Shown in pieces: positions 27,627 to 30,170 of a stretch of 64,000 nucleotides of DNA. Location of the stretch: NCBI GenBank assembly GCA_014377845.1, contig JACMOV010000221.1:369-64368 (forward strand), given 5' to 3'. The DNA is from Herminiimonas sp. (GTDB taxonomy: Bacteria; Pseudomonadota; Gammaproteobacteria; Burkholderiales; Burkholderiaceae_D). The notes beneath the pieces were generated by a model. The model had not been told where the DNA came from. It did not search any database and saw only the letters and a list, made by a program, of their open reading frames with translations. Within the stretch, counting starts at the first letter, position 1; each line of letters begins with the position of its first letter. The translations under genes and the position numbers were made by a program.

Positions 27627-28847
27627 ATGGCCACCATTCTTGTCGTCGACGACCACGCGATCAATCGCGCATTCCTGGTCACGCTGCTGAGTTACTGCGA
27701 CCATCGCATGCTGGAAGCCCAAGATGGCGCCGCTGCCTTGAAGATGATGCAGCGCGAGCGCCCGGACCTCGTGATTTCCGACATCCTCATGCCGAACATG
27801 GATGGCCACGAGTTCGTCACCCGCATGCATGCCTCGCCCGACCTGGTGCAGATTCCCGTCATCTTCTACACCGCGGCCCACCATGAAGAAGAGGCGCTGG
27901 TGATCGCGCGCTCGTGCGGTGTCCGGGGGGTGCTCACGAAGCCGTCCGAACCCGACGTGATCATGCGCACCGTCAGCGAAGTGCTCGGCGTGGCGTTAAC
28001 GGTCAAATCCGTACCACCGCTGACGGCGCCGCCGGCGGAAGGCAGCCGTTTCAGCACGATCGACAACCAGCTTGCGGAATACCTCGTGGAACTGGAAAGC
28101 AGCAGCGCCCTGATCGCCCAACTCGCGGTTGCGCCCGGCATGACGGAAGCGGCTTCGGTGGACCGGGCTGCAGCGCAAAAACGACTCGCATCGTCGCTTC
28201 TGCATCTGCAGTCAGCCAGCATTCGACTGACTTCGCTACTCGACATCAGTCGCGAAATCGCCGCCGAAACCGATACCGGCGTTGAAGCCGACGCCCACGT
28301 TGCTGCGGCGCCCGGGTACAGCATTGCGCGGCTGCCGAGCGGCGGTTCAACCGTTCCACCGCCGGCAGCCGGCAATGATCGGGCAGAGATCACGGTTACA
28401 CGGGAGCGGGCAAAGTTTCGGGAACGCCTAGCGAAGGCACTCCAGTTCGCCGGTTATCCACACGACAGCCCGACCCAGCTCGCCCGCGAATTCAACTTCC
28501 GTTTTTCTGGCCGGCCAGTGACGATCCACGCAGCGCGAAAATGGCTGGTCGGCGAATCGATCCCGACGCAGGACAAGCTGCGCATCCTGGCGCAGTGGCT
28601 GGGCGTGACGGCGGAGTGGCTACGCTTCGGCGATGCCGACAAGACTGCCGCCGGCCATGTGCGGCCGCCGGCACCGGCGGCCAATTCCGAAGAGGGAAAA
28701 CTGCTGGCGGCGCTGCTCGAGCTGGACCCGTATCACCGCCGCCTCGCGCATGACTTCGTCAGCATGCTGGCAGCCAAACCGATGCAAGCGGGCGCGCCGG
28801 GCAAGCAGCCGGCGACACCCCGGAATATCAAGGTCAGGCCGGCGTAA
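27627..28847 (+). CDS. Response regulator with N-terminal receiver, a roughly 170-aa unknown middle region and C-terminal XRE/Cro-type HTH
   Basis: The REC domain is 'ILVVDDH', 'DLVISDILMPNMDG', 'FYTA' and 'LTKP'. The C-terminus 'TQLAREFNFRFSGRPVTIHAARKWLVGESIPTQDKLRILAQWLGVTAEWLRFG' looks like HTH_3. Confidence 0.8.
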   Translation: MATILVVDDHAINRAFLVTLLSYCDHRMLEAQDGAAALKMMQRERPDLVISDILMPNMDGHEFVTRMHASPDLVQIPVIFYTAAHHEEEALVIARSCGVRGVLTKPSEPDVIMRTVSEVLGVALTVKSVPPLTAPPAEGSRFSTIDNQLAEYLVELESSSALIAQLAVAPGMTEAASVDRAAAQKRLASSLLHLQSASIRLTSLLDISREIAAETDTGVEADAHVAAAPGYSIARLPSGGSTVPPPAAGNDRAEITVTRERAKFRERLAKALQFAGYPHDSPTQLAREFNFRFSGRPVTIHAARKWLVGESIPTQDKLRILAQWLGVTAEWLRFGDADKTAAGHVRPPAPAANSEEGKLLAALLELDPYHRRLAHDFVSMLAAKPMQAGAPGKQPATPRNIKVRPA

Positions 28848-29934: not shown

Positions 29935-29961
29935 AAAAAACCGCCTGCTCGGCGGTTTTTT
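29935..29961 (-). terminator. Intrinsic terminator / attenuator hairpin directly upstream of the aroG RBS
   Basis: AAAAAACCGCC-TGCTC-GGCGGTTTTTT. On the minus strand the stem is followed by UUUUUUAUUU, and about 20 nt further on comes the aroG SD. Confidence 0.7.
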
Positions 29962-29981
29962 AAGAAATTCGGTGGGTTTCG

Positions 29982-30074
29982 TCAGACTGCTTTTACGTGA
30001 ACCTTCCGCTTTTCCACCGCCGTTGGGCTGGAAACGCTAAAGTAAAAATAAAAGTGAAATGGCATGGTGCGCAT
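29982..30074 (-). CDS. Candidate Phe/Tyr-rich leader peptide (30 aa) of the aroG leader
   Basis: My own translation of the minus strand gives MRTMPFHFYFYFSVSSPTAVEKRKVHVKAV*. It has four Phe and two Tyr in seven consecutive codons. Most of them use TTT/TAT, which are rare-looking in this GC-rich genome. Confidence 0.55.
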   Translation of the reverse strand: MRTMPFHFYFYFSVSSPTAVEKRKVHVKAV

Positions 30075-30142
30075 GGGATGCTCAGTCGATCGAATACAGC
30101 AATAGTGCAATGGTTTGCAGATTTCCGCAAGTTGCAGTCCAC

Positions 30143-30170
30143 ATTATGCTGCATTTGCGTCATTCGTCAA
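30143..30170 (-). promoter_or_regulatory. Sigma70-like promoter for the aroG leader
   Basis: On the minus strand: TTGACG (30170-30165), a 16-nt spacer, then CATAAT (30148-30143). It lies immediately after the tldD stop. Confidence 0.5.

Follow-up and report, generated by a model that had tools for sequence, protein, structure and literature searches.

A candidate leader-peptide transcription attenuator upstream of the AroG-type DAHP synthase gene in Herminiimonas sp. and related Burkholderiales

On the minus strand of a 64,000-nucleotide stretch of the Herminiimonas sp. genome (assembly GCA_014377845.1, contig JACMOV010000221.1; the window), the spacer between tldD and aroG, the gene for an AroG-type class I 3-deoxy-D-arabino-heptulosonate 7-phosphate (DAHP) synthase, holds a short open reading frame (ORF) rich in phenylalanine and tyrosine codons and, between this ORF and the structural gene, an intrinsic terminator. 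Sequence comparison and RNA folding make it highly probable that the arrangement is a ribosome-mediated (leader-peptide) transcription attenuator of the DAHP synthase gene that senses charged tRNA-Phe and tRNA-Tyr. It is built like the classical leader-peptide attenuators such as trpL and pheL: an upstream ORF enriched in codons for the end products of the pathway, followed by a terminator. A Phe/Tyr attenuator had been proposed here from the letters of the window alone (the original prediction). All of the elements that it listed are present between tldD and aroG at the positions given below, and the proposal as a whole is supported, in that 78 of 80 related loci keep the mini-ORF, the terminator and a GGCGG segment, and leaders folded with a stalled ribosome switch to the antiterminator.

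The leader ORF and its conservation

The leader ORF (30074 to 29982, minus strand) consists of 30 codons and a TGA stop and encodes MRTMPFHFYFYFSVSSPTAVEKRKVHVKAV; in the alignment its ATG falls on that of the relatives, and the ORF listing gives a TTG-extended version of 42 amino acids. The regulatory codon run F-H-F-Y-F-Y-F (TTT CAC TTT TAT TTT TAC TTT; 30059 to 30039) is aromatic in six of its seven codons, and the four Phe and two Tyr codons thus lie where the original prediction had placed them. This run is the sole stretch with at least six aromatic residues in seven in the six-frame translation of the window (63% G+C), and composition-preserving shuffles of the window produced such a stretch in just 1 case out of 200 (0.005 expected per shuffled sequence).

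For comparison, one genome per species was scanned with the DAHP synthase protein and the best 80 loci (82-89% protein identity) were taken; these derive from the Oxalobacteraceae (Collimonas, Herbaspirillum, Noviherbaspirillum, Janthinobacterium, Massilia, Duganella, Undibacterium and others) and also from Paraburkholderia, Caballeronia, Mycetohabitans and 'Candidatus Burkholderia'. In 78 of these 80 the orthologous DAHP synthase gene is preceded, at a distance of 160-390 nt, by a mini-ORF that has 5-11 aromatic codons, and in all 78 a CCGCC...GGCGG-U terminator comes after this mini-ORF; the F/Y-rich mini-ORF and hairpin first noticed in a single sequence accordingly recur throughout these Burkholderiales. 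A covariance model (R1) built from the alignment yields one match per locus (56-144 bits), always upstream of aroG and on its strand; leaderless and paralogue loci give no match, and the 64-kb window has a single copy. Metagenome contigs were also collected by the leader motif alone; among the 80 examined, aroG (80-90% identical) is found just downstream in 73 and the other 7 end too early. Since aroG follows in all 73 contigs that are long enough, the element is dedicated to this gene. A wider protein search beyond the best 80 genomes returned only relatives at an identity of at least 86%, and a DNA search of plasmids and chromids found nothing.

The leader peptides are of three types, FYFYFSYSSPxAVEKR, FFTxYFYFSNSNPKAVE and MSAKFYFYFFWHLRPLADREG, that have little in common beyond the aromatic run. 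Within the run, positions swap among TTT, TTC, TAT, TAC and TGG across the relatives; one position is TAC or TAT in 64 of the 76 aligned sequences, a Trp codon stands inside the run in 12 of the 76, and Phe and Tyr codons number 354 and 186 over all leaders. Codon choice for Phe in the leaders (270 TTT and 84 TTC, 76% TTT) is opposite to that in the adjacent aroG genes (106 TTT and 391 TTC, 21% TTT), and in the window TTT:TTC is 4:0 in the leader versus 0:7 in aroG. Such a preference for the rarer codon is consistent with a stalling sensor, and pairing of the U-rich codons with GUAAAAG in the long 1:2 stem described below may be a second contributor to the TTT preference. The position of the stop codon differs between leaders, and the flanking nucleotides (e.g. 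GUUCACGUA) are conserved on both sides of it; because the stops vary while the nucleotides stay conserved, conservation 3' of the aromatic run is at the RNA level. Selection is apparently on the codons and not on the peptide.

Leaders of the Paraburkholderia, Caballeronia and Mycetohabitans type (L069, L071, L074, L076 and L078-L080), which lie about 190-270 nt upstream of aroG, read MSAKFYFYFFWH... and carry Phe, Tyr and Trp codons in one run, and some Massilia leaders also contain W (CYFWFSHSS). Such leaders hint at a sensing of all three aromatic amino acids. The leader of Candidatus Burkholderia humilis, a leaf-nodule symbiont (L077, 2311-2443), runs out of frame past FYFYF (MSANKFYFYFLLASQ...) with no stop through the terminator, and has the appearance of an attenuator that is decaying within a reduced genome.

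The synteny of tldD and aroG is retained in the relatives, including the two genomes that have no leader. In these two, low-G+C metagenome-assembled genomes (MAGs) of uncultured Burkholderiaceae (L026 and L038, 2080-2530 in each), aroG comes 36 nt after tldD and there is neither mini-ORF nor hairpin; judged by their sequence, they are cases of natural loss or of primitive absence of the attenuator. Two Undibacterium loci (L029, 860-1114, and L034, 2365-2500) have 200-318 nt inserted between terminator and aroG. The L029 insert contains long inverted repeats (CACAGAGACACGGAGACACAGAG ... CTCTGTGTCTCCGTGCCTCTGTG) and resembles a small repetitive or mobile element, and a second promoter may reside in these inserts. 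Paralogous class I DAHP synthase genes (57-61% identity) on a chromid or megaplasmid of Ralstonia syzygii, Burkholderia sp. YI23 and Mycetohabitans rhizoxinica (L081, L082 and L084) have no aromatic mini-ORF upstream, and these isozymes are probably regulated differently; the aroG of Salinivibrio likewise has no such leader.

Alternative RNA folds and the position of the ribosome

The 211-nt leader folds with a free energy of -60.6 kcal/mol, versus -49.4 kcal/mol for shuffled sequences (z = -2.66). The intrinsic terminator (3:4; 29961 to 29935, minus strand), AAAAAACCGCC-GAGCA-GGCGGUUUUUU and then AUUU to 29931, combines a G+C stem with a U tract and is predicted at -15.9 kcal/mol. It is the consensus fold of the full 76-sequence alignment, in which CCGCC/GGCGG is invariant, and its A/U extension shows a compensatory A-U to G-C change in two sequences. 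The original prediction described an 11-bp stem followed by U6AU3; the hairpin stands at that place, but the U tract had been counted twice, as the U6 run is itself the 3' portion of that stem. Two readings of the terminator exclude each other: a G+C stem of 5 bp followed by U6AU3, or a stem of 11 bp followed by AUUU. A simple terminator scan missed the hairpin because the U6 belongs to the stem.

Upstream of the terminator, minimum free energy folds contain a 1:2 hairpin (30043 to 30001, minus strand) formed by region 1, ACUUUAGCGUUUCCAGCC, and region 2, GGCGGUGGAAAAGCGGAAGGU, with UUUCCAGCC paired to GGC..UGGAAA, GC to GC and ACUUU to AAGGU; it would sequester region 2 whenever no ribosome occupies region 1. 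The hairpin pairs 83.5% of alignment cells versus 33-63% in slid controls, with little covariation, one pair having a U-A to C-G double change in 8 sequences.

The core of region 2, CGGCGGU (30022 to 30016), is complementary to ACCGCCG (29956 to 29950), the 5' arm of the terminator, and forms the 5' strand of a predicted antiterminator; its GGCGG (30021-30017) is invariant in all 76 sequences. The antiterminator helix (2:3; 30022 to 29950, minus strand) consists of CGGCGGU:ACCGCCG extended by GGAAA:UUUCU, CGG:CCG, GGUU:AACC and CGU:ACG, with a predicted energy of -24.5 kcal/mol when the ribosome is stalled and region 4 is still unmade. It uses a segment at or close to the 3' part of the ORF and is mutually exclusive with the terminator. 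When the alignments are truncated before the terminator 3' arm and region 1 is removed, the consensus is GGCGGU:ACCGCC in the Oxalobacteraceae and GCUGGCGG:CCGCCAGC in the Burkholderia type. The five G-C pairs of the core occur in 76 of 76 sequences (75-76 when counted in register in alignment A1, where the row of the window is shifted by one column at CCGCC) and the U-A pair in 66 of 76. The 7-bp antiterminator of the original prediction is correct for the window, but only 5-6 of its pairs are general, since the seventh, the next one outward, is as a C-G pair peculiar to the window, and its position pairs in just 21 of 72 relatives.

Each of the 76 leaders was folded up to, and without, the terminator 3' arm under three ribosome states, and the probability that GGCGG pairs with CCGCC, P(2:3), was computed; the simulation is a thermodynamic sketch that contains no kinetics. 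A ribosome stalled on the final aromatic codon gives a median P(2:3) of 0.999; 74 of 76 leaders exceed 0.5, and the window reaches 1.0. In free RNA with no ribosome the median is 0.015 (above 0.5 in 19 of 76; window 0.998), and with the ribosome at the stop codon it is 0.000 (above 0.5 in 11 of 75; window 0.057). Both the terminator and the antiterminator that were expected of the leader are thus predicted folds. In the thermodynamic model a stall frees region 2 and full translation blocks the 2:3 pairing, and the simulation in this way reproduces the logic of trp- and phe-type attenuation.

Completed translation had been expected to cover CGGCGGU. This applies to 59 of 75 leaders, in which the stop codon starts at most 15 nt from the region 2 core, so that a terminating ribosome would physically cover region 2, but it does not apply to the window itself, whose longer ORF has its stop 32 nt past the GGCGG core. 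With a ribosome at the window's stop codon, the model has the lower antiterminator helix broken and region 2 re-paired with region 1 (P = 0.54).

From the elements seen in the sequence, from how well they are conserved and from the alternative folds predicted for them, we infer the following course of events. Transcription would start at a promoter between tldD and the leader, and a ribosome would translate the 30 codons. When Phe- or Tyr-tRNA is scarce, the ribosome would stall within F-H-F-Y-F-Y-F and cover region 1; region 2, that is CGGCGGU and the sequence after it, would be left to base-pair with ACCGCCG (region 3, which forms the terminator's 5' arm), and with the terminator blocked RNA polymerase would read into aroG. 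When the aromatic codons are read fast, the ribosome would reach the stop codon and either cover region 2, as in most relatives, or break the lower antiterminator so that region 2 re-pairs with region 1, as in the window. The CCGCC/GGCGG hairpin and its U tract would then form and transcription would end about 35 nt before the aroG start codon.

Transcription start, regulated gene and competing explanations

There are two promoter-like sites in the spacer of the window. P1 (30170 to 30143, minus strand), the TTGACG, 16-nt spacer and CATAAT of the original prediction, is present and agrees with the consensus at 10 of 12 positions, but it is not the conserved site: among the relatives only the closest, L001, has GCATAAT. 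P2 (30130 to 30102, minus strand), with TTGCGG (30130-30125), a 17-nt spacer and CACTAT (30107-30102), is the positional homologue of an element conserved in the relatives that consists of CTTGCCAA and, 16-18 nt later, TATAGT, CACTAT or TATAAA. Of the 76 sequences, 56 have TTGCCA, and the distance between the -10 hexamer and the leader ATG has a median of 32 nt. Either P1 or P2, or both, may serve as start promoters. The octamer CTTGCCAA, about 60 nt upstream of the leader ATG of the relatives, is conserved far above what is usual for a -35 element, and might double as a protein-binding site; the window (30125-30131) reads CTTGCGGA there. The window can also form a 6-bp hairpin, UUGCGG-AAAU-CUGCAA (30115-30130, minus strand), that would exist in RNA only if P1 is used, because it overlaps the P2 -35 hexamer.

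The regulated gene (29911 to 28834, minus strand, including its Shine-Dalgarno sequence (SD); coding sequence 29901-28834) has the GGAGAA SD (29911-29906) and the ATG (29901) that were predicted to follow the terminator, and encodes a 355-residue product. This protein scores 592.5 bits with the NCBIfam equivalog NF006723, above the cut-off of 568, and among solved structures it comes closest to the Phe-regulated E. coli DAHP synthase. A response-regulator receiver gene (27627-28847, plus strand) converges on aroG from downstream, and aroG is for this reason monocistronic. The aroG stop region overlaps the 3' end of the convergent gene by 14 nt (28834-28847), and the same overlap is called in a public MAG contig with an identical AroG (L085). 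The upstream gene, tldD (31651 to 30191, minus strand; NCBIfam TldD equivalog, 676.7 bits), lies outside the element and has its stop codon at 30193-30191.

Several observations weigh against an attenuator of the kind described. The leader ORF of the window has a weak SD-like GAG, 7-9 nt 5' of the ATG, and the A-rich leaders of the Herbaspirillum, Collimonas and Noviherbaspirillum type (peptide ...FYFYFSYSSPxAVEKR) are devoid of an SD. The promoter is ambiguous, P1 being nearer to the consensus but unconserved and P2 being conserved in position with a -35 hexamer that is degenerate in the window. At equilibrium naked RNA favours 2:3 over 1:2 in the window and 18 other sequences, and because free RNA prefers 2:3, termination in those 19 has to rely on either the translating ribosome or the kinetics of folding. 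Covariation, which had been suggested as a check, appears as the A-U to G-C change of two sequences in the terminator and the one pair change in 1:2, but the core of the antiterminator gives no signal, and a test of the core is uninformative since its pairs never vary among the 76 sequences. For the latter reason the antiterminator is supported by invariance and complementarity, a three-way conservation, and not by covariation; any mutation of CCGCC would have to be matched in both of its partners. The extended antiterminator is just slightly more stable than versions with shuffled inner sequences (median z = -0.98), and its strands show mostly one-sided changes on inspection. The excess stability over the shuffles being modest, the extension beyond the core is no more than likely.

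Other explanations of the same elements have to be weighed against ribosome-mediated attenuation. That the hairpin is a plain terminator of tldD and the F/Y-rich ORF a chance product of an AT-rich spacer is hardly credible: the hairpin does lie 230-256 nt downstream of the tldD stop on the same strand and would also stop read-through from tldD, but a 6-of-7 aromatic stretch as rare as that in the shuffles would not be expected in 78 of 80 genomes with synonymous and F/Y/W swaps, a conserved promoter-like element stands between tldD and the ORF, and the leaderless L026 and L038, where aroG is 36 nt from tldD, lack the hairpin as well. Very unlikely too is an independent small gene, for a small RNA or protein, with its own promoter and terminator and with aroG expressed from a separate promoter. 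The unit does have a promoter-like site and a strong terminator, the Undibacterium gaps of 200-318 nt would leave room for another promoter, and terminated attenuator RNAs and leader peptides of other bacteria are reported to be able to act in trans (rnTrpL/peTrpL of Sinorhizobium; PMC7298713, PMC7968998). However, in the window the U tract is just ~35 nt away from the aroG start, with no promoter-like site found in between, the element precedes aroG on its strand in every case (78 genomes and 73 metagenome contigs), the C-terminal part of the peptide is unconserved as protein, with stops that vary among conserved nucleotides, and both the aromatic codon bias and a GGCGG complementary to the terminator arm would serve no role in a gene standing by itself. 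It is improbable, and suggested by analogy with rnTrpL/peTrpL, that besides the attenuation of aroG in cis an abundant terminated leader RNA (~160-200 nt) or the peptide acts in trans on other genes of aromatic metabolism, with the F/Y/W run as an integrating sensor of all three aromatic amino acids that replaces TyrR/TrpR.

Regulation of the terminator by a protein (TyrR/PhhR-like or TRAP-like) or a small molecule that binds the leader RNA or DNA, in place of ribosome stalling, could be argued from the E. coli DAHP synthase genes, which are under the TyrR and TrpR repressors (PMC11802643), and from the very strong conservation of CTTGCCAA over the -35 region, which could be a protein site. 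It is a decidedly improbable account, since a search that allowed up to 3 mismatches found no TyrR-box-like sequence near the promoter region, none of the riboswitch or leader families of Rfam gives a match, and a conserved reading frame enriched in aromatic codons with a rare-codon bias would go unexplained. By analogy with the E. coli trp operon, repression at the promoter could nevertheless exist alongside attenuation. More of a question is which amino acids an attenuator of the proposed kind would sense. It is possible, though on the whole doubtful, that Phe alone is sensed and that Tyr (and Trp) codons are tolerated neighbours: Phe codons exceed Tyr codons 354:186, the enzyme is of the AroG type that in E. 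coli is Phe-sensitive, and the F-Y-F leader of Corynebacterium glutamicum aroF responds, according to a review's report of Neshat et al. 2014 (PMC11802643), to Phe limitation and not to Tyr availability. On the other hand Tyr codons are kept at specific positions, with TAC or TAT at the one position in 64 of 76 leaders, and 12 of 76 have a Trp codon in the run; this retention suggests selection for aromatic codons in general.

Relation to known systems and significance

The attenuation mechanism itself is not new for DAHP synthase genes, and the statement of the original prediction that it was not established for them is wrong. C. glutamicum provides a direct functional precedent: RNA-seq revealed a leader with F-Y-F ahead of aroF (Mentz et al. 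2013, PMC4046766), and transcription of aroR-aroF is raised on Phe limitation and not on Tyr limitation (Neshat et al. 2014, as summarized in the review PMC11802643). There as here, a leader peptide with aromatic codons precedes a DAHP synthase gene and stalling raises, or in the present case would raise, transcription, and the F-Y-F of aroR also constitutes the last three aromatic codons (TTT TAC TTT) of most Oxalobacteraceae leaders; the likeness is one of function and of this shared triplet. The present element differs from aroR in belonging to another phylum, in its longer aromatic run (5-11 codons, sometimes with Trp) and in an AroG-type gene that lies beside tldD.

Predicted systems are known as well. 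The Acholeplasma uORFC-13-1 motif upstream of aroF (Brewer et al. 2021, PMC8632094; predicted only) resembles the present element in having a Phe-codon upstream ORF just 5' of an intrinsic terminator before a DAHP synthase gene, and is unlike it in its occurrence in Mollicutes and environmental sequences, in a U-run that itself codes at least one Phe and in being a different motif. For the aroF-tyrA operon of Vibrio, attenuators are predicted in the Merino database, as cited in PMC1173090; going by that citation, a terminator/antiterminator is likewise predicted before a proteobacterial class I DAHP synthase gene, but this is a Tyr-type isozyme operon of Gammaproteobacteria and a database prediction. 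The E. coli pheL-pheA leader (Rfam Phe_leader, RF01859) and trpL, hisL, leuL, thrL and ilvL share the architecture predicted here, of a short ORF with regulatory codons, 1:2 and 2:3 pairings and a 3:4 terminator before a biosynthetic gene. In contrast to the pheL-pheA class, the element described here would control the entry enzyme of the common pathway and not a terminal branch, and mixes Phe and Tyr (sometimes Trp) codons. TyrR/TrpR repression of E. coli aroF, aroG and aroH concerns the same regulated step and the same signal, the supply of aromatic amino acids, but employs protein repressors at promoters, whereas here control of transcript elongation is predicted and there is no TyrR-box-like site.

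None of the families of Rfam 15 attains its gathering score at any position of the 64-kb window. Membership in Phe_leader was rejected (20.3 bits, E = 0.89, against a gathering score of 55), as was membership in Trp_leader (13.9 bits, sub-threshold), and the sub-threshold matches are mostly to the terminator hairpin. Literature searches found no description of the element in the Oxalobacteraceae, Burkholderia or the Burkholderiales, and as many subscription papers are outside their coverage this absence is not proof. The conserved element of the Oxalobacteraceae and Burkholderia relatives thus appears to be uncatalogued.

The mini-ORF and attenuator are unannotated at present, and because the element is strongly conserved, easy to model and without an Rfam family it could enter annotation pipelines. 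Removal of the attenuator is an obvious engineering step for the production of aromatic compounds in Burkholderia, Herbaspirillum and Collimonas hosts, as has been done for aroR in Corynebacterium; the finding is useful for annotation and strain engineering, and is only moderately surprising. With its mixed Phe/Tyr(/Trp) run, the element is a natural case on which multivalent attenuation could be tested. In soil, in freshwater and on plants, a large group of Betaproteobacteria probably gates the entry of carbon into the shikimate pathway in this way, by sensing tRNA charging and not by the TyrR/TrpR repressors of the E. coli model.

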